From: a virus
Taxonomy: Duplodnaviria; Heunggongvirae; Uroviricota; Caudoviricetes
IMG/VR virus record: IMGVR_UViG_2778261393_000002
Length of the DNA stretch: 29,964 nucleotides
Direction: 5' to 3' (one strand)
A program made the position numbers and the translations under genes. This document shows, piece after piece, positions 2,200-29,420 of this stretch. Position 1 is the stretch's first letter. Each line of letters opens with the position of its first letter. The notes under the pieces were generated by a model. It was not told the DNA's origin. It saw nothing but the letters and a program-made list of their open reading frames with translations, and made no database searches.

Positions 2200-2466
2200 T
2201 TATTGCTGTTTTGTTTTTTCCGGTTTCCATCCTGGGTGCCAATCGCCACGGATCCACGCCTGAATCTCCGAGAGACGATAGCCAGCGGCACGTTCACCAA
2301 TCTTAATACGTTTTGGGAACTTACCTGTCTTTTCCAGTTTCCAGCGTGTTGAATTTGCCAGCGTAGTAAGTGCCACGCATTCTTTTTCACGAATGACACG
2401 ATCAATATCCGGCATTGCAGTAAAATCTTTTTCATCAACAAGTGAATAAACTGACATATCAAACAA
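2200..2466 (-). CDS. alpA: AlpA-family phage transcriptional regulator, excisionase-like
   Basis: Translation contains DRVIREKECVALTTLANSTRWKLEKTGKFPKRIKIG, typical of AlpA/Vis-type winged-helix proteins. Sits immediately downstream of and overlapping the integrase stop. Exact start uncertain (M1, M4 or M18). Confidence 0.75.
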   Translation of the reverse strand: MFDMSVYSLVDEKDFTAMPDIDRVIREKECVALTTLANSTRWKLEKTGKFPKRIKIGERAAGYRLSEIQAWIRGDWHPGWKPEKTKQQ

Positions 2467-3700
2467 CCTCTTTACTCAGTTCAATAACGTTATTATTAAA
2501 TCCGGCTATCGTGTTAAGGTAATTAACCCACATATTAAGAACCTCAAGTTTTTTCTTTACATGCTTGCTTTTATTATAAACACCCGCCACACCTTTAACT
2601 TTATGACCAAGCAGAAGCTCTACAATATAAGGATCGGCACCCATATCGTTAAGCATTGTTGAAAATGTACGCCTGAAATCATGTATGCACCACAGACCAT
2701 TTACATCATGCCCTAGCCGCCTGCATATCCGGCTTGCTGCTCCTGTTATTGTCGCTCGCTTCAGTGATCTACCGATAACACAATCCCGGTGCTTTGTTTC
2801 CGCATAAAGATTAATAACCCATTGTTTTATTCCATCAGGGACTGGTCTTACAATAACCTCGCCGTTCTTGCTGTGCTCTTTTGGAACTGTCCAAATCCAG
2901 TTTTTTAAATCCCATTCTTCCCAAGTGGATAACCGCGCCTCCTGCTGACGGCAACCAAACACCAGGCAGATAACCATAATTCTTCGGTTATGTATTGATG
3001 AAAGGGTAAGTAAATTGTTGCCATAGGCATAAGACCATACGTCAGCGGCTTCATTAATACTCAGAACACGATCCCTTATGCCTGCTGAACGTCCAACATA
3101 ACTAACGTTAATATCACCGAATGGATCGCAACTAATGTATTGCCTGATACGGCAAAAACGTAACGCCTGTTTAATATCAAGAAAAATAGCACCAGACATA
3201 ACAGGAGCATTTTTTTTAATTCTGTCAAATACAGTAAGCCAGGTATGCAATTTGCACTGTTCTATAGCCATATCTCCGATATATGGAAAAATATGCTTTT
3301 CAAATCTTTTTATTAAATACTCATGCTGCTTTCTGGCTGTCCTGGCGTGATTATCGTACCAGTAAAGCACCGCATCCCTTACAGTTACAGGGCGCATGTT
3401 TTTTTCAGCTACAAGTTTTATTTGTCTGCGAGGATCCAGATTTTCCGCCAGCCATTCACGGCACTGGTCGCGTAATCTCCTGGCGGCTGCCAGAGACATA
3501 TCAGGATAACGCCCAAGGGTCAGCCATACCGGAGGGGCATCCCTGCCGCCAATACGATAGTAAAAAACGAAACTAATTCCCCCAACCACGCTTACACGAA
3601 CAGATAGCCCCCGCCCATCAGCCATGATTTTTTGTCTGTCCTGCGGCTTACCTGCAAGACTTTTCAGAAGTTTGTCAGTCAGTTTATTCTCGATAGCCAT
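2459..3700 (-). CDS. int: Tyrosine integrase, P4-like
   Basis: 413 aa from MAIENKL (start codon 3698-3700). Phage-integrase catalytic region visible (HDFRRTF ... LLGHK ... VYN). Paired with alpA as in P4-family elements. The listed ORF extends 24 codons further upstream to 3772. Confidence 0.85.
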   Translation of the reverse strand: MAIENKLTDKLLKSLAGKPQDRQKIMADGRGLSVRVSVVGGISFVFYYRIGGRDAPPVWLTLGRYPDMSLAAARRLRDQCREWLAENLDPRRQIKLVAEKNMRPVTVRDAVLYWYDNHARTARKQHEYLIKRFEKHIFPYIGDMAIEQCKLHTWLTVFDRIKKNAPVMSGAIFLDIKQALRFCRIRQYISCDPFGDINVSYVGRSAGIRDRVLSINEAADVWSYAYGNNLLTLSSIHNRRIMVICLVFGCRQQEARLSTWEEWDLKNWIWTVPKEHSKNGEVIVRPVPDGIKQWVINLYAETKHRDCVIGRSLKRATITGAASRICRRLGHDVNGLWCIHDFRRTFSTMLNDMGADPYIVELLLGHKVKGVAGVYNKSKHVKKKLEVLNMWVNYLNTIAGFNNNVIELSKEVV

Positions 3701-3718
3701 ATGTAGCCTACACGTCAA

Positions 3719-3772
3719 TTTGCAATACACACCCCATCCAAACGCCAACTTGCAATACACATTGCAATACAC
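3719..3772. repeat. Three direct copies of TTGCAATACAC upstream of the integrase start
   Basis: Copies at 3720-3730, 3750-3760 and 3762-3772. The last two are tandem with a 12-bp period. They lie about 20-70 bp upstream of the int start codon. Confidence 0.6.
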
Positions 3773-8045: not shown

Positions 8046-8912
8046 CTAAGCGAGGTTCTGGTTTTCAAATTGTTCCGGACTGAGGCCGCCACACCAACTG
8101 TGCCGCCGCCACCGATTGTAATCACATTCGATATAATTAAACACCGTTGCCCGCATTATTTCCCGGCTGATAAAGTGTTCTCCATGGATACATTCCACTT
8201 TCAGCGAATGAAAGAAGCTTTCCACGCAGGCATTATCGTAGCAGCAACCTTTTGCGCTCATACTTCCACGCAGATTATGCCGCTTCAGTTGCGCCTGATA
8301 ATCTGCTGAACAGTACTGGCCTCCACGGTCCGTGTGAACGATAACGTTCCAGGGCCTCTTACGCCGCCACAGCGCCATCTGCAGGGCATCGCAGGCCAGT
8401 TGCGCCGTCATGCGTGGCGACATTGACCAGCCAATAACGGCACGTGACCACAGGTCAATGACCACTGCCAGATACAGCCAGCCTTCATCTGTACGTAAGT
8501 ACGTGATGTCTCCTGCCCACTTCTGGTTCGGGCCACTGGCGTAAAAATCCTGCTCCAACAGATTTTCTGACACAGGCAGGCCGTGTGCGCGGTAGCTGAC
8601 CGGGCTGAACTTCCGGGAGGCCTTTGCCCTCAGTCCCTGACGGCGCAGGCTTGCCGCCACGGTTTTTTCGTTAAAGGGGTAACCCTGAGCACGCAGTTCA
8701 TCCGTCAGGCGTGGGGCACCGTAACGCTGTTTTGACCGGGTAAAAGCCGCGAGGACAACGCTGTCGCAGTGTTGGCGGAACTGCTGACGCGTGCTTATCC
8801 TTGTCCGCCGCTGACACCACGTATACCAGCCGCTGCGGGCCACCCGGAGCACGCGGCACATTGCTTTGATGCTGAACTCAGCCTGATGTTTTTCAATAAA
8901 GACATACTTCAT
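8046..8912 (-). CDS. insF: IS3 transposase OrfB
   Basis: 288 aa with DDE transposase/integrase core (WAGDITYL ... HTDRGGQY ... [11 protein letters not shown]). Matches IS3 InsF as remembered. Confidence 0.95.
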
Positions 8913-9217
8913 TTCAGGCGCTTCGCGAAGTATGTCGCGGCCTTTTGGAGGATAGCCAGCTCTTCATCCCGTTCTGCCAGCTGGCGTTTGAGACGTGCAA
9001 TCTCGGTAGACATCTCCAGTTCACGTTCAGAAGACGTCTGCTGATTTTGCTGTTTACTGCGCCAGTTGTAGAGCTGTGATTCATACAGGCTGAGTTCACG
9101 GGCTGCGGCAGTAACACCGATGCGTTCAGCAAGCTTCAGGGCTTCACTGCGAAATTCAGGCGAATGCTGTTTACGGGGTTTTTTACTGGTTGATACTGTT
9201 TTTGTCATGTGAGTCAC
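8909..9217 (-). CDS. insE: IS3 transposase OrfA (HTH)
   Basis: 102 aa ending in a leucine-zipper-like segment. Its stop overlaps the orfB ATG in the -1 frame, as expected for IS3-family programmed frameshifting. Confidence 0.95.
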
Positions 9218-16513: not shown

Positions 16514-16656
16514 CTCCCTGCCCCATCAATAAAAGTTCGGTTCTCTAATAACTAGAGTTAATCAACGGAAAAAACGCCGAAGCGGGTTAAGTGCGGGTGC
16601 GTTGAGGATGCCTGACACATCAGAGGTGGCGAGGGATTTCTCCCCCGCCAGGTCTC

Positions 16657-16812
16657 TTACTCCTCAGGTTCGTAAGCTGTGAAGACAGCGACCTCCGTCT
16701 GGCCGGTTCGGATTCGTACCTCGCAGAGGTCTTTCCTCGTTACCAGTGCCGTCACAATGACGGTTAAACAGATGACGATCAGGGCGATTAACATCGCCTT
16801 TTGCTGCTTCAT
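16657..16812 (-). CDS. hokD: Hok/Gef-family type I toxin
   Basis: 51 aa MKQQKAMLIALIVICLTVIVTALVTRKDLCEVRIRTGQTEVAVFTAYEPEE with AAGGAG SD, matching HokD/RelF as recalled. An overlapping upstream frame (to 16869) is the mok-like reading frame. Confidence 0.85.
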   Translation of the reverse strand: MKQQKAMLIALIVICLTVIVTALVTRKDLCEVRIRTGQTEVAVFTAYEPEE

Positions 16813-17023
16813 AGCCTGCTTCTCCTTGCCTTTCGGCACGTAAGAGGCTAACCTAGATTTGCCGTTCATAGATTGAGCCTCAGATTAATGTTAAGCGTCT
16901 TGCAGGACGCGTAATGTTAACTGGGGCTTTTCTCTATCTGCCTTTGGTGTTCATGCCTGAGACAGATAGCCTCAAGCACCCGCAGCCATTCTACTTAACT
17001 CCCGTTACCTCGCCAATATAAAA

Positions 17024-17113
17024 TCAATCAGAAAGGCGATCCATAAGAACAACAGCAAGACAATAAATTGCCATTACAGCTGCAATAGCCAGCGCACATT
17101 TGAGAACCAGCAC
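17024..17113 (-). CDS. Candidate small hydrophobic peptide, 29 aa
   Basis: Perfect SD AGGAGG (plus 17119-17124), 5 nt spacer, GTG start (17111-17113). Translation (M)LVLKCALAIAAVMAIYCLAVVLMDRLSD is one transmembrane helix plus a short charged tail. Not in the supplied ORF track because it is under 60 aa. Confidence 0.3.
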   Translation of the reverse strand: MLVLKCALAIAAVMAIYCLAVVLMDRLSD

Positions 17114-17399
17114 GACAACCTCCTGTATTGGACGTACACCAGTCCTGATAAATATGAGGCTGTCTCATCATTGATGAGATACAACTATTGGGTATAGTTT
17201 CTGTGATTTTGTTCTGTAGAAATGGAACACAACAACCAGTCACCACCAGCACTTCTTTAAATACGCCAAGTCCGACGCAAGCTAACCTTCTAGTCCGCTT
17301 TGAGCGAGAAGCGGGCCTTTCGACAACCATATTTAGATGAATAGTGGGCTAGGAATACTTTAGCAATTACATTGCTAATATCAATATAAGTAGTAGATT

Positions 17400-17433
17400 C
17401 AAAAAAAATAAGCCACCTAAAAAGCATGGCTTA
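17400..17433 (-). terminator. Rho-independent terminator ending the AT-rich cargo cassette
   Basis: Stem TAAGCCA (17409-17415) and TGGCTTA (17427-17433), followed on the minus strand by an 8-nt U-run (plus-strand A-run 17401-17408). 13 nt after the stop of the 417-aa ORF. Confidence 0.6.
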
Positions 17434-17445
17434 ATTGCAAATAAA

Positions 17446-18699
17446 TTACATTTTATCAATTTCAGAAATGATCCTATCAATTTCATCAATGCTTGCTTGA
17501 ATTGTTAGATTATTTTTTATTATCTCAAGTAATTCTATTGCTCTTCTTTTGGGCCTTGATGACACCAGTTCTGAATTTGCTCTTTCATTCTCCACGAACA
17601 ACCGTGAGAGAGCCATCAATTGATTACTATTTAACACATCTAAAAATGGTTGAAGTACTAAATGTGCATCAGATCTTCCCCAGTAATTCCCCACCCAAAC
17701 AGTAAGTATTTCTTGATATACATCTTCAAATGCAATAGATGGAACATGAGGTCCAAATTGTATAAGTGCCTTGGCTGCTCTTTCTTCATCATTCCAGCCG
17801 TAAGATGTATCCTTAGCTTTAGCTAGCTGTTTAACCGCATGTCTGTATAAACTTGCCCTAGCAGCATCAGGTATAAATTTCACACCATTAACTTTTACTA
17901 AAGTCTCTAAAATTCTTATTTTTGCTCCTTTATCCTCACTTGTATCCGATTCGGGCTCCAGCATAAATGAGTGATATCTTTCCCCCGCTGTTTTTTTAAG
18001 GTCATCATTAGATCTTTCCCATGCTTGTTCAAACAACTTGCTAGCATTAACATAAGCAGGATTTTCCCCCTTAGTTATTAAATCCAATAAAAATCCAAAT
18101 GTTATTCTTATATCAGCTTGCTTAAATGCTCTTATTTGATCTTTAAGTAAGTCTATGCTCTCAATTGATAGTTCAGATTTTTTTATGGGTTCAAATAATC
18201 CAGATGGCGAATGTCCAGGGTCTGGCATATCAGATTCGAATAAATTCTTCTGGAGCATAAGAGCCAAAGCAAACACATCCTCAGACTCTACTTTACTATC
18301 ACTTGCATGGGCTGGAGAGGCATGGTTTCTCATCCAATTGATCATTTCTAATGATTTTCCAGCTTTCTTATGCAGAACCCCTAATTTGGTGGCTCCACTT
18401 ATTAGCACTAAATCATCTACACCTGACCATCTCTCGTTTATTGTTTCACCATCTTTATCATATTTTTTACGACCACTATCATCCTTTATTGCGGAAAGGA
18501 ATAAGTCTAAACCATAAGCCTCAATTCGCCGCCTAAGATTATGAATGGATGCATTCCATATATCTAAAAGAGCATGATCAGGGAAGCCAGAATCTAACAA
18601 CTTTCTAGCTTGCGAAAGGAATTCTATTTCAGTATTAACTGTTGCAGGAAAATTAGTTGTTGATGGCGAGCTTAATAAAACCGGGAGATTTTTTGACAT
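17446..18699 (-). CDS. Hypothetical protein, 417 aa (cargo gene B, candidate defence effector)
   Basis: Long uninterrupted ORF in an AT-rich segment with SD AAGGAAA upstream. No family recognised. Contains an R-x6-H motif (MRNHASPAH) of the kind seen in HEPN RNases. Confidence 0.8.
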   Translation of the reverse strand: MSKNLPVLLSSPSTTNFPATVNTEIEFLSQARKLLDSGFPDHALLDIWNASIHNLRRRIEAYGLDLFLSAIKDDSGRKKYDKDGETINERWSGVDDLVLISGATKLGVLHKKAGKSLEMINWMRNHASPAHASDSKVESEDVFALALMLQKNLFESDMPDPGHSPSGLFEPIKKSELSIESIDLLKDQIRAFKQADIRITFGFLLDLITKGENPAYVNASKLFEQAWERSNDDLKKTAGERYHSFMLEPESDTSEDKGAKIRILETLVKVNGVKFIPDAARASLYRHAVKQLAKAKDTSYGWNDEERAAKALIQFGPHVPSIAFEDVYQEILTVWVGNYWGRSDAHLVLQPFLDVLNSNQLMALSRLFVENERANSELVSSRPKRRAIELLEIIKNNLTIQASIDEIDRIISEIDKM

Positions 18700-19312
18700 T
18701 GAATTTCCTTTAAGTAAAAATTATAATCTATGTCTTTGTGAACAAATTTACACGATATTGTAACCTTGCAGGTGCAAGAAGTAGTGTTCAAATAAATACG
18801 TGAAGAGAAAAAATCCGCCATGACAAAGCTATACACTATTCCCAATTCTTAAAAAATTCAATATGTTTAAAAAATTAATTTTCAAAACTAGCATCCTAAT
18901 ACTCTAAACACACCTATATACAACTAAGGATATGAACAGTATCCTTTTATAGAAGGAGTCTGATCCCTACAGATTTAGAGATTTTAATGTTTGTTAACTT
19001 CCGCCTATGACACAGAGGTGCTGTTGCAGCCCTAAAAACCTTATGTTTTGTTCAAGTCAGAGCTATACGACGCATCGTCGAATTCAATGCCCAAGCAACG
19101 GATTGTGCTTGCCAGTTTCTTATGGTTCAACAGAGGTTCAATGATTAGTATGCTGTAAAGCAAATCTTCGAGACAAAACTTCTCTACCCCCCATGAAAAA
19201 TTTCGGTTGAATTGCCTGGGTGATGTGTGCCGGATAGCTCCAACTCGAGACTGAAGCATGAAGTCTTTACTATGAAAATTAGCAGACTGTATACGCAGCC
19301 TGCTAGTTTATG

Positions 19313-20434
19313 TTAGAGCTTATAAAGTTCAATTAATCTGGATTTTTCTCTGTCAAATTCTTCATCAAGATTTGAGAAGTCTGGAAGTGTAACCATTAAA
19401 TCCTTAAGTTGATGAATAACATTCCAGACATCGTAATGAATAAAGGGATTTAAGCCAATTACATTCCCCTCATCATTATTTTTAGATTTCCCTACACCAC
19501 ACAATTTGATGAATTTGTTGATTGCAGTTGTTTCATTCCAGTCCGAGACAAAAAGAAGCAAGGCAGATACAGCCAAAAGGGGGTTATTTTTTTTAACAGC
19601 GGATATACCCCTGATTTTCCTAAAAAGAAATTCGTGATGCCTGGTTATTTTTTGTGCAACTCTTATCGTTGCTTCATATTTTTCTTTAAGCAACCTTCTA
19701 TCATAAACCTGATAACCTCGATCTCGTGCTACTAATCGATGTGCTTGTTTAGTAAATGTGGTACTATTCACAAGATTATAGAAAACAGAATTATTTTCAT
19801 TAGTCATGTCGATCATCAATGATGGATATTTGAATCTTAACGAACGATACACTTCATCGTTTATATCAAACCAGGATTTATTTTTCCTCTCTTCATCTAC
19901 AATATATTTACTTTCTCCCTTACGGGAATACATGCTGGCCCTTATTAGATTGATCATGTGAGGGCTATAGTTAACAGAAAAAGTGCCTGACTGGCGTAAT
20001 TCTGTAAACCATTGCCGCATGTTTCGAATATCTTCCTGATTGAACTCATCATGTTCAATACCTCTACATACAAGCTCGCGAATTATACTTGTAATCTCAG
20101 AACCTGAGGTGCCGAATTTTATAAAACCATCCCTTGATGAATCTATTTGCTTATCATTACCACTGTAATGATCGCAAAATACTTTGTGTGCATCAGTTCC
20201 GTCTTTTGTTCTAAACGAAAAATGAGATTGGCTGACTATCTTATTTGTTCTTTTCGAATAACCTTCTGAAACAACAATCGCACCGCTTACATTGCAAATT
20301 GGGCACTCTGCATCAAAGGCAACAAATTCCTTGAAATCACTGAAATTGAGTGCGTTATCTGATGAGTAATGGTTTAACAATTGAACCATGTCCAATTCCT
20401 TTTTGAATGTACGAGAATAGACCGTAATTGCCAT
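19313..20434 (-). CDS. Hypothetical protein, 373 aa (cargo gene A)
   Basis: Start taken at MAITVYS (codon 20432-20434) with SD AAGGGAG 7 nt upstream. No family recognised. N-terminal Cys/His cluster (ECPICNVSG ... HKVFCDHY). Confidence 0.8.
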   Translation of the reverse strand: MAITVYSRTFKKELDMVQLLNHYSSDNALNFSDFKEFVAFDAECPICNVSGAIVVSEGYSKRTNKIVSQSHFSFRTKDGTDAHKVFCDHYSGNDKQIDSSRDGFIKFGTSGSEITSIIRELVCRGIEHDEFNQEDIRNMRQWFTELRQSGTFSVNYSPHMINLIRASMYSRKGESKYIVDEERKNKSWFDINDEVYRSLRFKYPSLMIDMTNENNSVFYNLVNSTTFTKQAHRLVARDRGYQVYDRRLLKEKYEATIRVAQKITRHHEFLFRKIRGISAVKKNNPLLAVSALLLFVSDWNETTAINKFIKLCGVGKSKNNDEGNVIGLNPFIHYDVWNVIHQLKDLMVTLPDFSNLDEEFDREKSRLIELYKL

Positions 20435-20635
20435 TTGAACTCCCTTCATCATAATTTTGGTTGTATGAAATATTATCGCATAAAGATACTAATGAGCCAG
20501 TAATATAACTAGAAACGACTTTTTGTGGTTCAGCGAACTAGACGTCCGCTCCTGGCACAAAGCGGACAACCACGCTAGCTCTACCCTGTGCCACAAAATG
20601 TCAATTTGCATCTGAACTAATGCACTTTAATCTCG

Positions 20636-21058
20636 TCACTTCAATAAATACCGAACATCACCCTGATAAAACGACAATATGCGCTGCATAACTTCACTCT
20701 TCCGGCACTCGCGACAGATTATGTTCTGACGCCTGTCGTAGCGACGTATTTCTCCGTCAGGTAATGACCAGATAAGGTCCGGATCAACCGCAGATGGTTT
20801 CTTCAGCTTTGCCCTTGAGAGCTTTTTACGGGCATTTTGCCAGTCCTTACGCGCCTGTTCAGACGGGAATAACCCGTAACCAGAGTTGTATACATCGCCG
20901 CTGGCAACCAGCTCTCTTGCGAGAACGCTCATCAGATATCTTGTCGCACCTGTCTTGACTTCCAGTTGCCGTAACGTCTCACGCCCACTCTGGCGTACGA
21001 GTTCAACAACCTGTCCTTTAATTTTTTCCCGCTCTTCTTGTGTAAAAACTTTTGCCAC
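20636..21058 (-). CDS. Hypothetical prophage protein, 140 aa
   Basis: Basic protein with a C-terminal CxxC-like segment (IICRECRK), immediately downstream of the replication gene. Family not recognised. Confidence 0.55.
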   Translation of the reverse strand: MAKVFTQEEREKIKGQVVELVRQSGRETLRQLEVKTGATRYLMSVLARELVASGDVYNSGYGLFPSEQARKDWQNARKKLSRAKLKKPSAVDPDLIWSLPDGEIRRYDRRQNIICRECRKSEVMQRILSFYQGDVRYLLK

Positions 21059-21098: not shown

Positions 21099-22175
21099 TT
21101 ACCCCCTGAAGCCCGGCGGAATTTCGTTATCCGGTTCAGAAATATGATTCACACAACGCTGGTTGTTCGTGCCGCTTACCGGGAGCAACCAGGGGTTCTC
21201 AAAATTCCGGTCCGGTCCAAAAAACGTCGTCGCTCGCTGAACAAATTCCGTTCCCGTTTTCCCGGTAGCCGCCAAGTATCTTGCGTAACGCCTCACGCCA
21301 TCCAGCATGGCCTCTGGTGGCACCCCCTCGCGTAATCTGGCCTTCCAGGCACTGAAAGCTGATTTCTTCGGGTTTGCTCCGGCACGCAACGGGTACTCCC
21401 GCCAGACCTGTTCGAACACATCCGGATAATCCACTCGTCCCACAGACTGCCCGGTGTTTTCCGGGACTACCCGATCGGCTTCCCGCTGAATGGCGGAATC
21501 GGCTTCGGGCTGCTGCAGTTGGTGTGATTGCTCCAGCCTTGCGGTCATCACCTGCTGCACAGCGCCCGAATCGGCTTTCAGCGCATACGCTGAATCGGCT
21601 TCCGGTGTCGTGCCTGCTGGCTGACCAAGATTGACGGTCTGAACATCCCCTGCCTGGTTCGTGGCGTTTTTTACGCCATGGACCATAGTGTTTTGATCTT
21701 CTTGATCTGTATCTTTATCTGTATCTTTATCTGTCGTGACTCGTCGTGACATGTGCGTGACATTTCGTGACGCGCCGTGACAATCGCCATTTTGTTCCCG
21801 CTTTCTTTCCCTCTCTCGCTGCGCCCTCTTGCGCTCTGCAGGAGATTTTGCGGTTTGCGAAATATTGCCGTTGTCCTCTTTAAGCACCTGGCGTTTTTCC
21901 CATCCAGTGATTAAATCACCATCAAGTACCCGCCCCTGCATCGTCTGCAAAATTGAATCAATTACCTCTTCTGTCACGTCGAGCGCACTTGCCAAATCTT
22001 CTGTCGTGACATCAATGTGACCTCGCGTGACATTTCGTGACGCGCTCACCAGGAGGTGGATATACACTGCCATCACTGTTGCAATTGGCTGCCCTGACAC
22101 CCTGGCAATTGTTCGCCACTTAGGGTCATTTGGCATGTCATGCCATAATCTGAGCCAGGCGTTAGCCATACTCAC
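21099..22175 (-). CDS. Putative phage replication initiation protein with internal origin repeats
   Basis: 358 aa in the O-gene position (after cro and YdaT-like). N-terminal helix-rich domain and an acidic/low-complexity middle (DKDTDKDTDQEDQ). The coding DNA contains two iteron clusters. Confidence 0.55.
   Translation of the reverse strand: MSMANAWLRLWHDMPNDPKWRTIARVSGQPIATVMAVYIHLLVSASRNVTRGHIDVTTEDLASALDVTEEVIDSILQTMQGRVLDGDLITGWEKRQVLKEDNGNISQTAKSPAERKRAQRERERKREQNGDCHGASRNVTHMSRRVTTDKDTDKDTDQEDQNTMVHGVKNATNQAGDVQTVNLGQPAGTTPEADSAYALKADSGAVQQVMTARLEQSHQLQQPEADSAIQREADRVVPENTGQSVGRVDYPDVFEQVWREYPLRAGANPKKSAFSAWKARLREGVPPEAMLDGVRRYARYLAATGKTGTEFVQRATTFFGPDRNFENPWLLPVSGTNNQRCVNHISEPDNEIPPGFRG
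21690..21781. repeat. Iteron cluster 1: five phased CGTGAC repeats plus adjacent tandem repeats
   Basis: CGTGAC at 21735, 21745, 21756, 21766 and 21776 (10-11 bp spacing), preceded by tandem ATCTTTATCTGT x2 and GATCT motifs (21690-21730). Confidence 0.65.
22005..22044. repeat. Iteron cluster 2: four phased (C/T)GTGAC repeats
   Basis: Repeats at 22005, 22015, 22026 and 22036. The 19-mer CGTGACATTTCGTGACGCG at 22026-22044 is an exact copy of 21756-21774. Confidence 0.65.
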
Positions 22176-22240: not shown

Positions 22241-22666
22241 TCAATGTACTGCCACAGCATTTCCTGCCGGGCCACCACGGTTCATCTGATTGAAACCGGC
22301 GATTGCCACTGCGACAAAATCATCAGCGTCTCTCACCAGCCGCTCCCGCGTCTCCACCAGCTCCCGAAAATAAGCTGAACTGTGGCTGCGCATTCTGGCC
22401 ACCAGCAAAGGTGGCATTGCCTTTTCGATCGCTGGTAACAACGCCTGAATTTTTTCAACTGCATCAGGGGTGTCTTTCTCTATCCAGCGGAAAATTTTCT
22501 GGGTATTGCGAGCCAGGGCGTCCGGATGGCTGTCGTCGTACAGTTCAGGAAACGTCATACCCAACTCAAAATAAGCCTGGGTTATTCCAGCTGCCGGAAC
22601 TTTTTCGCCATCAGGACGTGCCCAGGCATTCATCGCCATGCGGATGTGTTCATGCTTGATTTTCAT
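22241..22666 (-). CDS. YdaT-like protein (cII-position gene)
   Basis: Start taken at MKIKHEHI, which matches the N-terminus of Rac YdaT as recalled. Directly downstream of and overlapping the Cro-like gene. Confidence 0.6.
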   Translation of the reverse strand: MKIKHEHIRMAMNAWARPDGEKVPAAGITQAYFELGMTFPELYDDSHPDALARNTQKIFRWIEKDTPDAVEKIQALLPAIEKAMPPLLVARMRSHSSAYFRELVETRERLVRDADDFVAVAIAGFNQMNRGGPAGNAVAVH

Positions 22667-22892
22667 GAATCCCCCCTTGGTTAGAAGGCGGATTATGATC
22701 AGAACCGGGAATGACAACCGTCGGTATGTGTAACTCATATTTGAGCGCCCCGGCAGTGACTGCCTGAATTAGCAACGCCCATTTCCACGGAACGTCTTCC
22801 CCCCACATGCTGACTGTGGTTTTTGACGTTCCTAGAGCGGCGGCTGTTTTAACAACTCCGCCAAAATAGCCTAATACTTCTGATTTTTTCAT
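22650..22892 (-). CDS. Cro/DicC-like (YdaS-family) HTH regulator
   Basis: 80 aa from MKKSEVLGYFGG (SD GGAG upstream). Divergent from the CI-like repressor across a 91-bp intergenic region. Confidence 0.65.
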   Translation of the reverse strand: MKKSEVLGYFGGVVKTAAALGTSKTTVSMWGEDVPWKWALLIQAVTAGALKYELHIPTVVIPGSDHNPPSNQGGIHENQA

Positions 22893-22983
22893 GATTCGCT
22901 CCATAAAACTGAACGCCAAAAGTTTAATAATCAAAACCAAAGAAAGTCAAGAAACAAAACCATCTGTGTTTTAAAATCAAAAC

Positions 22984-23622
22984 ATGAACAAGCAAACAAT
23001 ATCTGAACGCATAACCCAACGTATGCATGCGCTAAACTTGAAAGGCAAAGACCTTGTCAATGCCACTGGCGCATCAAAAGGCTCCGTAAGTCAATGGATG
23101 AACGGTGGAGGAGCGCCGTCCTCGCGTTACATAAGCTCACTGGCAAAGATATTGAAAGTAAACGAAAATTGGCTTCTTAATGGAGGAGAGTTAAATACAG
23201 GTGATTCGCTTGATCTATCTTTACCGCCGATAAAAACGGTTCCGCTACTATCACTTCAGCAGGCAGCAAGCTGGAGTGATTATATGAAAAATTCCTCAAT
23301 AACCTCTTGTGTGCAGCTTGTCGGAGAAATCCCGGCCAATACCTTTGCTGTTGTTCTAGAGAGTGACAGTATGTCGACATCTGGTGGTGGAGTTTCCATC
23401 CCAAATGGTTCAACAGTTTTTGTTGATCCCGATCGAATCGTACAACCAGGAAATATTGTCCTTGCCTTACCCAAAGGGACCACAACGCCTGTCATTCGCA
23501 AACTGGAGATAGAAGGGCCGGATATTCTTTTAGTCCCCACGAATCCTCGCTACCCTTCAATTATGCTGGATGATCTATCTTGCATATTGGGAGTATGCTT
23601 TAAAATTCAACAAGATATTTAA
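22984..23622 (+). CDS. CI-like repressor with N-terminal HTH and C-terminal S24 (LexA-like) peptidase domain
   Basis: 212 aa. N-terminal XRE-type HTH (LKGKDLVNATGASKGSVSQWMNG). C-terminal peptidase region with SDSMS serine and a downstream Lys (VIRKLE). Confidence 0.85.
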   Translation: MNKQTISERITQRMHALNLKGKDLVNATGASKGSVSQWMNGGGAPSSRYISSLAKILKVNENWLLNGGELNTGDSLDLSLPPIKTVPLLSLQQAASWSDYMKNSSITSCVQLVGEIPANTFAVVLESDSMSTSGGGVSIPNGSTVFVDPDRIVQPGNIVLALPKGTTTPVIRKLEIEGPDILLVPTNPRYPSIMLDDLSCILGVCFKIQQDI

Positions 23623-25563: not shown

Positions 25564-28002
25564 ATGAGTAAAGTCTTTATTTGCGCCGCCATTCCGGACG
25601 AACAGGCAATAAAGGAAGAAGGTGCAGTCGCTGTAGCCACTGCCATTGAAGCCGGCGACGAACGCCGCGCCCGTGCCAAATTTACCTGGCAATTCCTGGA
25701 GCAATATCCGGCTGCTCAGGACTGCGCTTATAAATTTCTTGTTTGCGAGGATAAACCCGGCATGCCCCGCCCTGCCATCAACTCCTGGGATACCGAATAT
25801 ATGCTGGAAAACCGCTGGGATGAAGAGTCAGCCTCTTTTGTCCCGATCGAACCAGAATCCGATCCGATGAACGTCAATTTTGACAAGCTGTCCCTTGAAG
25901 TACAGAACGCGGTCCTGGTTAAGTTCGGTACATGTGAAAACATCACCGTTGATATGGTGATTAGTGCACAGGAATTGTTGCAGGAGGACATGGCAACATT
26001 CGACGGGCATATCGTTGAGGCATTGATGAAAATGCCTGAAGTTAACGTCATGTATTCAGAACTAAAGCTGTTCGCCATCGGGTGGGTTAAACATAAATGT
26101 AAGCCGGGTGCAAAATGGCCTGAGATCCAGACAGAATTACGCACCTGGAAAAAACGTCGCGAAGCCGAACGCAAAGAAACCGGGAAATACACGTCTGTTG
26201 TTGATCTTGCCCGCGCCAGAGTCAACCGGCAGCACACTGAAAACTCAGCAGGAAAAATCAACCCCGCCACTGCCGCCATTCGTCGCGAATACAAGCAGAC
26301 ATGGAAAACGCTGGATGAAGAACTGGCCTACGCTCTGTGGCCTGGCGATATTAATGCCGGAAACATTGACGGCAGCATCCATCGCTGGGCAAAAAATGAA
26401 GTTATCGACAAAGATCGCGAAGACTGGAAGCGCATTTCCGCATCAATGCGCAAACAACCCGATGCCGTCCGCTACGACCGTCAGACTATTTTTGGCCTTG
26501 TCCGTGAGCGTCCGATCGACATTCACAAAGATCCCGTGGCACTGAACAAATACATCACTGAATACCTGGCGACAAAGGGCGTGTTTGAGGATGAAGAAAC
26601 AGACCAGAACACTGCTGATATTCTCCAGCCGTCAGCAGCACAAACTGATGCAGTGGAAACTGAAGTATCTGATACCCAAAAAAATGAAAGCACGCTGGAA
26701 ACTGAACCATCTGTAGAGCGTGAGGGGCCGTTCTACTTCCTTTTCACCGATAAGGATGGCGAAAAATATGGTCGTGCAAACAAACTTTCTGGTCTGAATA
26801 AGGCGCTGGCTGCAGGGGCTACTGAAATCACGAAAGAAGAATATTTTGCCCGCAAAAACGGCACATACTCAGGTTCACAACAAAATACTGGTGCATCTGA
26901 CACGATCGCACAACCAGAGCCGGTAAAAGTTACCGCTGACGAAGTAAACAAAATTATGCAGGCAGCCAATATCAGCCAGCCTGACGCCAATAAGTTGCTT
27001 GCTGTATCACGTGGTGAATTTGTTGCAGGGATTAGCGACCCGAATGATCCGAAATGGGTGAAGGGGATTGAAACCCGCGATTCAGTGAATCAGAACCAGC
27101 AAGAAACGGAACAGAACGACCAGAAAGCGGAACAAAACAGCCCAAATGCGCAACAGGAGCCGGAAAAAGCCTGCACCGCCTGCGGTCAGACCAGCGGCGG
27201 CAACTGCCCTGATTGTGGTGCGGTGATGGGCGACGCAACGTATCAGGAAACCTTTAATGAAGAAAATCTGGATGAATCTCAGGAAAAAGATCCGGAGGAA
27301 ATGGAAGGCGCTGAACATCCACACAAGGAGAATGCTGGCAGCTATCAGGACCACGCCAGCGATAGCGAAACTGGCGAGACGGCAGATCCCTTAATTGCGG
27401 TGAACGGTCATCACGTTATCACATCCACCAGCAGAGTGTGGTACCACCTGATGATCGACCTTGAAACGATGGGTAAAAAAAGTAATGCCCCCATCGTGGT
27501 TATTGGTGCTGTGTTCTTCGATCCGCAGACCGGGGAAATCGGGCCAACATTTTATATCGTTATCAGCCTGGTTGACGCTATGGACACGGGTGCTGTTCCT
27601 GATGGTTCCACCATCGAATGGTGGCTTGCTCAGTCCAGCGAAGCCAGATCTGCAATTTTAGTTGATCAGGTAAAACTGGTTGACGCTCTTATTCAATTTC
27701 GGGAATTCATCAATGAGTACTCGGATGAAAAATTCGTTCAGGTATGGGGCAATGGTGCAACTTTCGACAACACTATTTTACGAACCTCGTACGAACGCCT
27801 GAACATCCCCTGCCCGTGGCGTTACTACAACGATCGCGATGTACGTACAATCGTTGAACTGGGAAAAACTATCGGCTTCGATGCCAGAACAGTTATTCCA
27901 TTTGAAGGCGTGCGCCACCATGCGCTGGATGATGCCCGTCACCAGGCGAAATACGTTACAGCCACGATACAAAAACTGATCCCGAATCAGGCTGATTTTT
28001 AA
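25564..28002 (+). CDS. Large prophage exonuclease with C-terminal DEDDh-type 3'-5' exonuclease domain and a CxxC..CxxC zinc ribbon
   Basis: 812 aa. C-terminus has DnaQ-like motifs (MIDLETMG ... WGNGATFDN ... HHALDDARHQAKY). Zinc-ribbon-like CTACGQTSGGNCPDCG. Sits in the exo/recombination position between dicB and xis-int. Confidence 0.75.
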   Translation: MSKVFICAAIPDEQAIKEEGAVAVATAIEAGDERRARAKFTWQFLEQYPAAQDCAYKFLVCEDKPGMPRPAINSWDTEYMLENRWDEESASFVPIEPESDPMNVNFDKLSLEVQNAVLVKFGTCENITVDMVISAQELLQEDMATFDGHIVEALMKMPEVNVMYSELKLFAIGWVKHKCKPGAKWPEIQTELRTWKKRREAERKETGKYTSVVDLARARVNRQHTENSAGKINPATAAIRREYKQTWKTLDEELAYALWPGDINAGNIDGSIHRWAKNEVIDKDREDWKRISASMRKQPDAVRYDRQTIFGLVRERPIDIHKDPVALNKYITEYLATKGVFEDEETDQNTADILQPSAAQTDAVETEVSDTQKNESTLETEPSVEREGPFYFLFTDKDGEKYGRANKLSGLNKALAAGATEITKEEYFARKNGTYSGSQQNTGASDTIAQPEPVKVTADEVNKIMQAANISQPDANKLLAVSRGEFVAGISDPNDPKWVKGIETRDSVNQNQQETEQNDQKAEQNSPNAQQEPEKACTACGQTSGGNCPDCGAVMGDATYQETFNEENLDESQEKDPEEMEGAEHPHKENAGSYQDHASDSETGETADPLIAVNGHHVITSTSRVWYHLMIDLETMGKKSNAPIVVIGAVFFDPQTGEIGPTFYIVISLVDAMDTGAVPDGSTIEWWLAQSSEARSAILVDQVKLVDALIQFREFINEYSDEKFVQVWGNGATFDNTILRTSYERLNIPCPWRYYNDRDVRTIVELGKTIGFDARTVIPFEGVRHHALDDARHQAKYVTATIQKLIPNQADF

Positions 28003-28063: not shown

Positions 28064-28333
28064 ATGAGCGAACAGTACCTGATAACGCTCGATGAGTGGA
28101 AACCCAAACGGTTCAGTCTCCCAATAACAAACACTACCCTGGTGAAATACGGAAAACTTGGATACATCGTACCAAGACCACAAAAAATTCGTGGACGTTG
28201 GCTGATAGATCGCCGGGCAGTATTTGTTGGACCTGGTGAAACGGGAATTGCGCCGGAAATTCATACTGGCGATGATGATGCACTGAAGGAGATTTTAACT
28301 CATGTCACCGAGGCCACGAAAAAACAGCACTGA
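28064..28333 (+). CDS. xis: Excisionase
   Basis: 89 aa from MSEQYLITLDEWKPKRF (ATG 28064, SD GGAG 8 nt upstream). Overlaps the int start, typical xis-int arrangement. Confidence 0.7.
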   Translation: MSEQYLITLDEWKPKRFSLPITNTTLVKYGKLGYIVPRPQKIRGRWLIDRRAVFVGPGETGIAPEIHTGDDDALKEILTHVTEATKKQH

Positions 28334-29420
28334 CGTAGCCGGTCTTTACGAAAAGTTTGATCGCAGAACTGGCAGAGTTTACTACCAGTATAAAAACCCT
28401 GTGACTGGAAAATTTCACGGACTCGGAACAGACAAAGGCAAAGCTGAAAGAATCGCTTCCACAGCCAATCAGCGAATAGCTGCAGCAGAAGCCGAATATT
28501 TCATGCGCAAAATTGATGAAAGTCCATCAGCAACAAAACGTCGGGGTATCAGATTAAAGGCATGGGTTGATCGATATCTGAAAATACAGGACACGCGACT
28601 GAAAAATGGAGATATTGCAGCTACAACTCACAAAGAAAAAACTCGAATGGCTGCATACCTGGTTTCCCGTCTGGGAAACCACCCATTGAAAGAACTGGAA
28701 GTAAGAGACTTTGCATTAATACTGGATGAGTGGCTGGATAAAGACATGGTCAGCACAGCGAGAGTAAATCGTGGATTATGGGTTGATATTTATAAAGAAG
28801 CACAGCATGCAGGGGAAGTTCCTCCTGGATGGAATCCTCCGGAGGCTACCCGTAAACCGATCCCTAAAGTAACCAGAGCCAGACTCACCCTGGAAGACTG
28901 GCAAAAAATTTACAACGCAACGCCTGAAAAACACTTTATCCGTAACGCAATGCTTCTTGCGATTGTTACTGGTCAGCGCCGTGATGACATTTGCCATATG
29001 CGTTTTTCAGATGTGTGGAACGAACACCTGCATATTACCCAGGGAAAAACTGGAATGCGTCTGGCGTTACCGCTGACGCTACGCTGTGATGCCATTGGGA
29101 TATCGCTAAAAGAAGTGATTGATGGATGCAGGGACAGAATATTGAGTCCATACCTGATTCATAGTCGGCACCAAAAACAACCAAAACCAATGAGTAAAGA
29201 CAACCTGAGCGATTACTTTGCCAAAGCGCGGGAGCTGGCTGGAATAATTCCACCAGCAGGAAAAACTCCGCCAACATTTCATGAACAACGTTCTCTATCA
29301 GAACGGCTGTACCGTGCACAGGGTATCGATACAAAAACATTACTGGGACATAAAGTCCAGGCAACCACCGATCGTTATAACGATACTCGTGGTCAGGAAT
29401 GGGTTAAATTGGTTGTTTGA
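28302..29420 (+). CDS. int: Lambda-type tyrosine integrase
   Basis: 372 aa, co-linear with lambda Int as recalled (LAIVTGQRRDDICHMRFSDV, EQRSLSERLY, LLGHK, RYNDTRGQEW). Confidence 0.9.
   Translation: MSPRPRKNSTDVAGLYEKFDRRTGRVYYQYKNPVTGKFHGLGTDKGKAERIASTANQRIAAAEAEYFMRKIDESPSATKRRGIRLKAWVDRYLKIQDTRLKNGDIAATTHKEKTRMAAYLVSRLGNHPLKELEVRDFALILDEWLDKDMVSTARVNRGLWVDIYKEAQHAGEVPPGWNPPEATRKPIPKVTRARLTLEDWQKIYNATPEKHFIRNAMLLAIVTGQRRDDICHMRFSDVWNEHLHITQGKTGMRLALPLTLRCDAIGISLKEVIDGCRDRILSPYLIHSRHQKQPKPMSKDNLSDYFAKARELAGIIPPAGKTPPTFHEQRSLSERLYRAQGIDTKTLLGHKVQATTDRYNDTRGQEWVKLVV

Follow-up and report, generated by a model that had tools for sequence, protein, structure and literature searches.

We wanted to determine whether a 373-amino acid (aa) cargo protein encoded in a 29,964-nucleotide (nt) stretch of viral DNA (the whole of which we refer to as the window) acts on its own or together with the product of a 417-aa gene beside it. 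An earlier reading of the window, made without database searches (the sequence-only reading), had correctly placed the 373-aa gene upstream of the 417-aa gene (17446..18699, minus strand) and had proposed that its product could be the sensor or partner in a two-component system. We call the two genes and their products A and B, respectively. The open reading frame of A is real, as the ORF list, a RefSeq copy, and the family alignment all show, and its coding sequence occupies positions 19313..20434 on the minus strand, stop codon included. The ORF list entry itself extends over 19313..20452 on that strand; the RefSeq annotation of a 99.8%-identical Escherichia coli copy (WP_072651455) and the family alignment, in which 223 of 227 members have Met-1, agree on the ATG at 20434 as the start, and the sequence AAGGGAG lies 7 nt upstream of it. 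A terminator-like hairpin found by a consensus scan (19280..19305, minus strand; 10-bp stem with five G-C pairs and a T-rich tail) follows 8 nt past the stop codon, which argues that A is probably monocistronic. The cassette that contains both genes lies within a low-GC island (GC 0.34-0.38 compared with 0.45-0.53 in the flanks).

The sequence-only reading had found no recognisable family for A, and this holds for Pfam, NCBIfam, and PADLOC: neither A nor B matched any entry in the first two or, at E values of up to 1, any PADLOC-DB 2.0 model. Matches among the PHROGs were, for both proteins, to families of unknown function only, A falling in PHROG 12525, and searches of PDB sequences with single sequences and with profiles gave no match for either. 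When 1.84 billion representatives were searched with a profile of A, only relatives of the same length and fragments were recovered; neither fusions nor ties to a known family emerged. The A family comprises 107 clusters. A nuclease-associated module had also been suggested for A, but no nuclease family or fold (HNH, PD-(D/E)xK, TOPRIM, or others) was detected by sequence or fold. Helix-turn-helix and other DNA-binding families were likewise absent by sequence and fold, no catalytic motif was detectable, and searching the literature for the protein accession and the PHROG id returned no match. The AlphaFold model of A has a pLDDT of 88.8 and a pTM of 0.85; an N-terminal, beta-rich domain containing the putative zinc site (approximately residues 1-100) precedes an all-helical C-terminal part, which is mildly basic (pI 9.0). 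A transmembrane-like hydrophobic segment is lacking (the best 19-residue Kyte-Doolittle mean is 1.5), which rules out a membrane protein. We conclude that A represents an uncharacterised family with a novel fold that has no counterpart among solved structures.

The feature of A that had drawn attention was a cluster of cysteines and histidines in two strings, ECPICNVSG (residues 43-51) and HKVFCDHY (residues 83-90), both of which are indeed present, and which had been read as a CxxC...CxH arrangement compatible with zinc binding. Conservation across 227 distinct full-length family members upholds the first half of this arrangement and corrects the second. Cys-44, Cys-47, and His-83 occur in all 227 members and Cys-87 in 226, and no other position in the protein is conserved as highly, a clustering of Cys and His far beyond chance. 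His-89, in contrast, is present in no more than 43 of the 227 members, Phe taking its place in 129 and Tyr in 42, which rules out a SWIM-like CxxC...CxH finger. The site is thus CxxC...HxxxC, with the first ligand pair, the CxxC knuckle read from the sequence as C44-P-I-C47, encoded at 20294..20305 and the second, H83-K-V-F-C87, at 20174..20188 (both on the minus strand). It resembles C2HC or treble-clef-type zinc sites in combining a CxxC knuckle with an HxxxC pair, in its four invariant ligands with their spacing (C-x2-C-x35-H-x3-C), and in the setting of these ligands within a small beta-rich domain. A metal-binding module is therefore supported by the invariant CCHC ligands and not by those originally named, and the conservation of these ligands suggests that the site presumably holds zinc.

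In the neighbouring protein B (minus strand), a HEPN domain is predicted at the N terminus, with helical repeats after it. The HEPN-type Rx6H motif, R124-N-H-A-S-P-A-H131 (codons at 18307..18330, minus strand), fits the Rx4-6H pattern with a polar residue (Asn-125) after the arginine, and B also has the four-helix fold expected of the superfamily. Across 37 homologues from several phyla, which are 57-94% identical, Arg-124, Asn-125, His-126, Ala-127, Ser-128, Pro-129, and His-131 are invariant. Compared with HEPN abortive-infection and toxin proteins (AbiD/F, HEPN-MNT toxins, and LsoA/RnlA), B differs in its large C-terminal helical-repeat domain, in having no antitoxin-like gene adjacent, in having no sequence match in Pfam, PADLOC, or the PDB, and in its unusual conservation at these identities across phyla. 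B is a stand-alone, highly conserved, predicted HEPN RNase, and it is usually solitary.

We next consider whether A and B form one system. The 613-nt spacer between them holds not only the terminator-like hairpin but also a remnant of a tyrosine-recombinase gene (19148..19280, minus strand), recognised by homology to a stretch of E. coli SF-468 annotated as [quoted passage not shown] In strain JMF1, an IS903B element is inserted between A and B and leaves both genes intact. The short spacer expected of an operon is therefore absent. Further, each gene belongs to a module that circulates without the other. The A module (19148..20567, minus strand), which extends from 133 nt upstream of A to 165 nt downstream of it, is found at 90% nucleotide identity over exactly this interval in E. 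coli SF-468 (L002), Serratia sp. Ag1 (L003), and a viral contig (L087), all without B. The B module (17297..19003, minus strand), consisting of B with ~300 nt upstream and ~150 nt downstream, is found at 84% nucleotide identity over exactly its interval in loci that encode the P0108 cluster (L066, L067, and L070) and lack A; protein homologues of B at 94 and 73% identity are also without A. The P0108 cluster is attributed by NCBI to Providencia rettgeri. The A+B composite, a cassette of 3.3 kb, is inserted in the cargo slot of the prophage at 17292..20567. It is 99.8% identical to a copy in an E. coli tRNA-Ser island (L001) and 99% identical to one in Serratia montpellierensis (L004), with different flanks, and it occurs in 13 of 5426 complete E. 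coli genomes. Among 57 species-representative and 13 viral loci, B adjoins an A homologue only in cassette copies that are at least 99% identical (L001, L004, L085, and L086). Co-occurrence across genomes was the check proposed for a sensor-partner pair, and in the 57 species-level loci it extends only to near-identical copies of this one cassette; the two-gene reading accordingly fails. We conclude that A is a self-contained gene and not an obligate partner of B, and that the two are independent modules with separate histories and boundaries, stacked side by side. The apparent two-gene locus then simply reflects modules that happened to be stacked in a hotspot, and is a caution for functional calls made from adjacency.

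The position of the cassette points to what A may do on its own. The slot belongs to a Rac/Qin-like lambdoid prophage, with the DUF977 (Ren-like) gene on one side of it and hok/sok on the other, and its flanks (16569-17069 and from 20664 onwards) are conserved in the XJ34 prophage, where the slot holds a P2 Old-type nuclease; in DC71, it holds PD-T7-1. A variable slot between conserved phage flanks, occupied by known defence genes in related prophages, fits a defence hotspot; a literature search for a described DUF977 hotspot found nothing specific. Further, in two P2-like prophages (L084 and L092), the interval from gpA to the portal gene holds an A homologue of 50-51% identity and no other cargo of appreciable size, and the P2 gpA-gpQ slot is an experimentally validated defence hotspot (PMC9122126). 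From Enterobacterales to Alphaproteobacteria and cyanobacteria, the family as a whole is found in prophages, P2-like phages, phage-plasmids, conjugative plasmids, and chromosomal islands. Other homologues occur by themselves on plasmids, IncX1 and many more (266 records), as well as on the phage-plasmid SSU5. We note, as a counterpoint to a defence reading, that plasmids and phage-plasmids, on which the family is common, are also home to anti-defence genes.

By its location and neighbours, A most likely has a defence role. The explanation that we favour, and to which we give about an even chance, is that A is a "moron," a self-contained cargo gene for exclusion or defence that has a terminator of its own, lies in a variable anti-phage hotspot, and encodes a soluble protein of novel fold with a Cys2-His-Cys site that works by binding. 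In this respect, A resembles the single-gene exclusion morons P2 Old and Tin, and PD-T7-1 in Rac-like prophages: it is cargo of low GC content that ends in a terminator of its own and occupies a variable temperate-phage slot, it has homologues in the P2 gpA-gpQ hotspot, and the window's slot is taken by Old or PD-T7-1 in other prophages. It differs from Old, an ABC ATPase with a TOPRIM domain, in showing no similarity to it in sequence or fold, and it resembles no PADLOC model either.

The alternative that survives best is that A and B do work jointly here, as one instance of a general design in which A senses infection and activates whichever effector lies adjacent, in this case the HEPN RNase. 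We consider this unlikely, although several observations speak for it. The A+B unit moves as a whole, bracketed by a 35-nt imperfect inverted repeat (I1; left arm 17280..17314, right arm 20546..20580), and is found in at least four contexts, namely the E. coli tRNA-Ser island, Serratia, and two different prophages. The effector-like neighbour, which shares the strand of A, moreover differs from one A clade to the next (FRG, SIR2, or GajA-GajB). FRG is separated from A by a 2-nt gap in two loci (L062 and L073) and is also downstream of A in L074-75 and L088-91, and SIR2 lies ~100 nt downstream in L093-97; a reciprocal metagenome search for FRG relatives returned a single locus, which was already in the set. 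The 2-nt gap in some clades suggests that A may not always act alone, and a looser role as companion of swappable effectors (FRG, SIR2, Gabija, and here the HEPN protein) may apply. Against joint action, however, stand the spacer with its hairpin and integrase remnant, the tolerated IS, and the fact that A and B each have their own conserved upstream region and are each found without the other. The B family is also the larger (>435 compared with 107 clusters) and is alone in all contexts examined other than the A+B cassette, just as A is solitary in P2 hotspots, on IncX1 plasmids, and on SSU5. Finally, the FRG and SIR2 neighbours match the PADLOC candidate models PDC-S15 and PDC-S25, respectively, in which we take the "S" to mean single-gene.

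The most frequent neighbour of A is Gabija, and this raises a second alternative, to which we assign a low probability: that A serves DNA-sensing nuclease-helicase systems, chiefly Gabija, as an accessory or third component, with the copy in the window being an orphan or acting with a host-encoded Gabija-type system. GajA and/or GajB lie within a few kb of A in 27 of 53 species-level loci, with four Gabija subtypes and several gene orders; because Gabija is present in only ~8.5-15% of genomes (review, PMC10568477), chance would bring the two together far less often. In two independent types of cassette, GajA, GajB, and A make up a discrete block of three genes, and the DNA conserved between genera (L014/L016/L020 and L042/L043) stops no more than ~100 nt from GajA and from A. 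One natural GajA-GajB-A cassette is that of Bradyrhizobium sp. LB11.1 (L016, 4644-9217); in L009, L041, and L044, GajA-GajB is 74-140 nt downstream of A. Gabija is described as a two-gene system (PMC10568477), and we found no literature on a third Gabija gene with a zinc site; the sole "GajC" comes from type II Gabija, where a split MazF-like protein takes the place of GajA (PMC13069673), and it belongs to a different family from A. On the other side, the whole 30-kb window contains neither GajA nor GajB, and the enterobacterial clade to which its copy of A belongs almost never has Gabija nearby. The Gabija and A blocks are also found apart or rearranged (L035 compared with L029, L039, and L032). 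Further, where A adjoins GajB, normalised similarity is 0.5-0.74 for A and 0.02-0.03 for GajB, and the A-GajB Mantel correlation is weak (rho 0.37) and driven by near-identical cassettes. With closely similar A proteins beside unrelated GajB subtypes, there is therefore no sign of A co-evolving with a specific partner. A itself has no ATPase, TOPRIM, or helicase motif, unlike GajA (an OLD-family nuclease with AAA_15 and OLD TOPRIM domains) and GajB (a UvrD-like helicase), even though its relatives adjoin and are co-transferred with four Gabija subtypes. Should it be borne out, a third gene travelling with four Gabija subtypes would bear on how Gabija is triggered or restrained, and the recurrent, partly cassette-level linkage is without mention in the literature that we searched.

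Other direct neighbours of A, besides FRG and SIR2, are HamB, LmuB, and NERD-UvrD. As a point against a defence role, nine of the ten flanking proteins that were tested, from ten A loci lacking recognised defence neighbours, matched no PADLOC model. Gabija, Hachiman, Lamassu, and NERD-UvrD are nuclease, helicase, and ATPase systems that are said to sense foreign DNA ends or replication intermediates (in part, PMC13069673). Returning to A as a self-contained exclusion or defence gene, we regard recognition by binding as its likeliest mode and enzymatic attack as less likely, because A has no catalytic motif and its usual neighbours are DNA-sensing systems. A would then act on its own in conflicts between mobile elements, in phage or plasmid exclusion or in defence; its zinc domain could recognise foreign DNA structures or a phage protein, upon which the conserved helical domain might block or signal. 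If the defence reading is true, A is an undescribed family of single-gene immunity or exclusion proteins with a fold absent among solved structures.

The range of neighbours could also be accommodated by a more sweeping proposal, which we put forward as speculation with little chance of being right in full: that the A family is a zinc-dependent recognition module of new fold that plugs into many immune effectors, as third component in a large share of Gabija cassettes and as companion of Hachiman, Lamassu, SIR2, FRG, and HEPN proteins, and either broadens sensing or sets the threshold between self and non-self. Solitary copies on phages and plasmids, including that in the window, would in such a case be stand-alone exclusion factors, or decoys that disarm a host system via the same interface.

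Carriage on mobile elements invites the opposite reading as well, that A is a counter-defence protein which neutralises a host system such as Gabija, and that the chromosomal copies in Gabija cassettes are built-in regulators or antidotes. Its occurrence alone on conjugative and other plasmids, SSU5-like phage-plasmids, and prophages, its lack of an enzymatic motif, as fits a binding inhibitor, and its linkage to one type of system across many lineages are consistent with such a role. We nevertheless think it very unlikely: prophage copies of A sit in slots that otherwise hold defence genes (Old, PD-T7-1, and the P2 hotspot) and beside other defence-type genes, and co-orientation and co-transfer with Gabija in chromosomal islands would be unusual for an inhibitor. 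WYL-type regulators (BrxR and CapW) accompany many different defence systems. A is like them in being one conserved protein beside many unrelated systems, and its Cys/His site and mildly basic C-terminal part might suit a zinc-finger transcription regulator of the adjacent cargo, yet with no winged helix-turn-helix, WYL domain, or other DNA-binding family by sequence or fold, with A as the sole cargo in P2 hotspots, and with its own terminator and a position often downstream of the system, a regulator is a most improbable identity for A.

The edges of the cassette are themselves structured. The arms of I1 are 77% complementary; the left arm is itself a small hairpin (CCGCTT-8-AAGCGG) and the right arm carries the hairpin GTCCGCT-CCTGGCACA-AGCGGAC, with the homology breakpoint at 17292 falling inside the left arm. 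A sigma-54 promoter in the TGGCAC-containing boundary hairpin was ruled out by eye, as there is no TTGC at the correct spacing. The right arm marks the DUF977-proximal edge of the slot, where the boundary hairpin occupies 20544-20567. This hairpin, together with the prophage-side flank, is present in 2073 of 5426 E. coli genomes; both examples that we inspected have it just downstream of DUF977, beside other cargo.

The window corresponds to a lambdoid prophage of the Rac/Qin-like type. It carries genes encoding an integrase (28302-29420), a product that contains a 3'-5' exoribonuclease-like domain (25564-28002), a cI-like repressor on the plus strand (22984-23622), a candidate Cro on the minus strand (22650-22940; named from its position and the annotation of related prophages), a YdaT-like protein, a replication initiator (21099-22175), and a DUF977/Ren-like protein (20636-21058). 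At the opposite edge of the cargo slot lies a minus-strand sok RNA (16807-16981; Rfam RF01794, 110 bits), which points to a hok/sok type I toxin-antitoxin locus comparable with the hokD region of related prophages. Beyond the slot and hok/sok are DUF968, RusA, and Q, with names taken from the related XJ34 prophage, and, further along, the gene for the large terminase subunit. The late region is broken by an IS3-family transposase gene (8046-9217). We also noted, past the large terminase gene, a second tyrosine integrase (2459-3772) of 437 aa with an Arm-DNA-bind_3 domain, and its presence suggests another integrative element adjoining the prophage.

A low-GC island (0.34-0.38 versus 0.45-0.53 in the surroundings) separates DUF977 from hok/sok and contains two minus-strand genes, the gene under study (gene A; 19313-20434, 373 aa) and its neighbor (gene B; 17446-18699, 417 aa). 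In related prophages, the flanks of this slot are kept and the cargo differs: XJ34 carries a P2 Old-type ATP-dependent nuclease; DC71 carries PD-T7-1 and a gene of unknown function; FDAARGOS_497 carries a 340-aa gene of unknown function; and the viral contig L086 carries a WYL regulator, a short-chain dehydrogenase, and an integrase fragment stacked beside the 3.3-kb A+B cassette (17292-20567 in the window). The DUF977-hok/sok interval (17070-20663 in the window; also loci L060, L079, L080, and L086) is a variable cargo hotspot of Rac/Qin-like prophages, of which we found no description in the literature searched. At the two ends of the cassette are the arms of an imperfect inverted repeat of 35 nt (17280-17314 and 20546-20580; complementarity 77%), each of them a small hairpin in its own right; the homology breakpoints of the cassette fall symmetrically within these arms. 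The same end motifs flank a B-only module in another genus (L066). Together with the flank on its prophage side, the right hairpin is present in 2073 of the 5426 E. coli genomes; two of these cases were inspected, and in both it lies where the slot borders DUF977. In the L086 prophage, an 18-nt part of the hairpin is found twice, once on each side of the additional 2.5-kb insert that holds the three stacked genes between DUF977 and the cassette. The hairpins may thus mark a site of cargo exchange, by homologous or site-specific recombination.

The start codon of A was placed at 20434, with AAGGGAG 7 nt upstream, in agreement with the family alignment and with the RefSeq annotation of a 99.8%-identical copy. 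The sequence-only reading had described an N-terminal Cys/His cluster in A of the form CxxC...CxH. The cluster is real, but the ligand assignment of its second half required correction. Among 227 distinct full-length family members, with identity down to about 25%, the four most conserved positions are C44, C47, and H83 (227/227 each) and C87 (226/227), whereas H89 is conserved in only 43/227; the site is therefore CxxC...HxxxC. Also near-invariant are residues of the extreme N terminus (M1, T4, S7, E13, and Q18), R140 inside IRNMRxWF, a hydrophobic helix (LLAxSALLLFVSDW), and GNxIGLNPF (residues 323-331), and none of these features constitutes a recognizable catalytic signature. The homologues form a compact family: clustering at 90% identity gave 107 clusters in one database, and a profile search of 1.84 billion proteins gave 214 representatives at 50% identity. 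Apart from fragments, the members have about 360-400 aa; they are annotated as hypothetical throughout and, among those found, contain no domain fusions. A had no match in Pfam, NCBIfam, or PADLOC and is assigned in PHROGs to phrog_12525, with function unknown there. A confident AlphaFold model from a 35-sequence alignment (pLDDT 88.8, pTM 0.85) places the ligands in an N-terminal beta-rich domain followed by about 260 helical residues; we found no structural match in BFVD and, by sequence and profile searches, no match in the PDB. The C-terminal part of A is mildly basic, and no transmembrane-like hydrophobic segment was found.

It had further been proposed that A is a sensor or partner of B in a two-component system, which five lines of evidence refute in this specific form. 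First, a scan limited to a single genome for each species gave 57 loci containing A homologues, with up to 8 kb per side; B was present beside A in just two of them, from E. coli (L001) and Serratia montpellierensis (L004), both copies being at least 99% identical to the cassette in the window. Second, the cassette occurs 13 times in 5426 complete E. coli genomes, where it sits in a tRNA-Ser island and not in a prophage, and other E. coli strains have A without B at 90% nucleotide identity. Third, the breakpoints show that A and B are two modules. The A module (19148-20567), comprising A, 133 nt upstream, and an integrase gene remnant, is found again, with B absent, in SF-468, Serratia sp. Ag1, and one viral contig; the B module (17297-19003), comprising B and about 300 nt upstream, recurs without A at 84% identity in loci encoding P0108 (a cluster attributed by NCBI to Providencia rettgeri). 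Fourth, a terminator-like hairpin lies 8 nt past the A stop codon, and in E. coli JMF1 (L099, 3289-4212) IS903B occupies the A-B spacer with both genes intact. Fifth, the B family is larger than that of A (more than 435 clusters), and B occurs alone in a Photobacterium lambdoid prophage and at the edge of an apparent integrative element, near Antirestrict and DUF932 genes. In the tRNA-Ser islands, we noted that the cassette adjoins genes for a VbhA-family antitoxin and a DUF2254 protein.

Homologues of B share 57-94% identity across Gammaproteobacteria, Betaproteobacteria, Lentisphaerota, and cyanobacteria and are exactly 417 aa in nearly all matches listed. The motif LEMINWMRNHASPAH is invariant except for the conservative substitutions I120V and A130S. 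Because R124-N-x5-H131 within B fits the HEPN Rx4-6H signature, we predict that B is a stand-alone HEPN RNase, of a family outside Pfam and PADLOC, and would have RNase activity. A is thus stacked beside an independent predicted HEPN gene.

In two P2-like prophages (L084 and L092), the interval from gpA to the portal gene contains a single sizeable gene, an A homologue (50-51% identity); this interval is the old and tin site in P2 and an experimentally shown defense hotspot (PMC9122126). Homologues are also found on 266 plasmids, including an IncX1-type Salmonella Dublin plasmid on which A adjoins a truncated AbiD, on the phage-plasmid SSU5, and in islands flanked by integrase or recombinase genes; in an E. 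coli clade with A only, the flanking genes include a dCTP-deaminase-type defense gene and a DUF4365 nuclease-like gene. A is shown to be a conserved and apparently monocistronic cargo gene that lies in a bona fide defense hotspot and belongs to a novel family whose CCHC site is invariant. Since it is the sole cargo in P2 hotspots and on plasmids, A would act autonomously in conflicts between mobile elements; as it has no catalytic signature, it would most likely do so through its presumed zinc domain, by recognizing structures in foreign DNA or a phage protein.

On a phylogeny of A, the typical neighbor differs clade by clade. In the clade at 50-58% identity, A is followed by an FRG-domain gene (candidate PDC-S15 in PADLOC), which begins 2 nt after the A homologue in L062 (6001-8092) and L073 (6001-8089), is present also in L074-75 and L088-91, and is reduced to a 42-aa remnant in L081 and L083; in the 46% clade, the downstream neighbor is a SIR2 gene (PDC-S25) at a distance of about 100 nt (L093-97). 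Elsewhere, A directly follows HamB (Hachiman) or LmuB (Lamassu) or directly precedes a NERD-UvrD helicase. That A is a promiscuous adaptor for neighboring effectors, here B, is conceivable, although we consider it unlikely. The A-FRG and A-SIR2 pairs, from sister clades, both recur in differing mobile elements.

A role as a Gabija accessory appears somewhat less probable still. In a distant A clade (Alphaproteobacteria, some Gammaproteobacteria, and cyanobacteria), Gabija, described in a review as a two-gene system and as present in about 8.5-15% of genomes (PMC10568477), occurs in 27 of 53 loci, with four subtypes by best PADLOC model and the orders GajA-GajB-A, A-GajA-GajB, and convergent. 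In two unrelated types of GajA-GajB-A cassette shared between alphaproteobacterial genera (L014 2672-7178, L016 4644-9217, and L020 4447-9149; L042 3497-9180 and L043 3451-9175), the limits of the conserved DNA block lie about 100 nt or less from the outermost genes, and these are therefore genuine three-gene mobile units. The link is nevertheless not exclusive because closely related A proteins adjoin unrelated GajB subtypes, A blocks and Gabija blocks also occur apart, 9 of 10 flanking proteins tested from ten A loci without recognized defense neighbors had no PADLOC match, and the window contains neither GajA nor GajB. The published "GajC" (PMC13069673) was rejected as a member of the A family, being a MazF-like protein. 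That A is a counter-defense factor is the least probable of these three readings and can be regarded as doubtful at best.

A is credibly a member of a defense-associated family, undescribed in the literature searched, with an unexpected affinity for Gabija cassettes; the comparative evidence for this family is solid and experiments would be easy, in a field with many competing candidate families. Finally, one clade of Alphaproteobacteria encodes, on the same strand as the A homologue and about 60 nt upstream of it, a 257-aa protein that matched nothing in Pfam or PADLOC (e.g. L032, 7167-7940; also L028, L035-L037, L039, and L056), with or without Gabija nearby.
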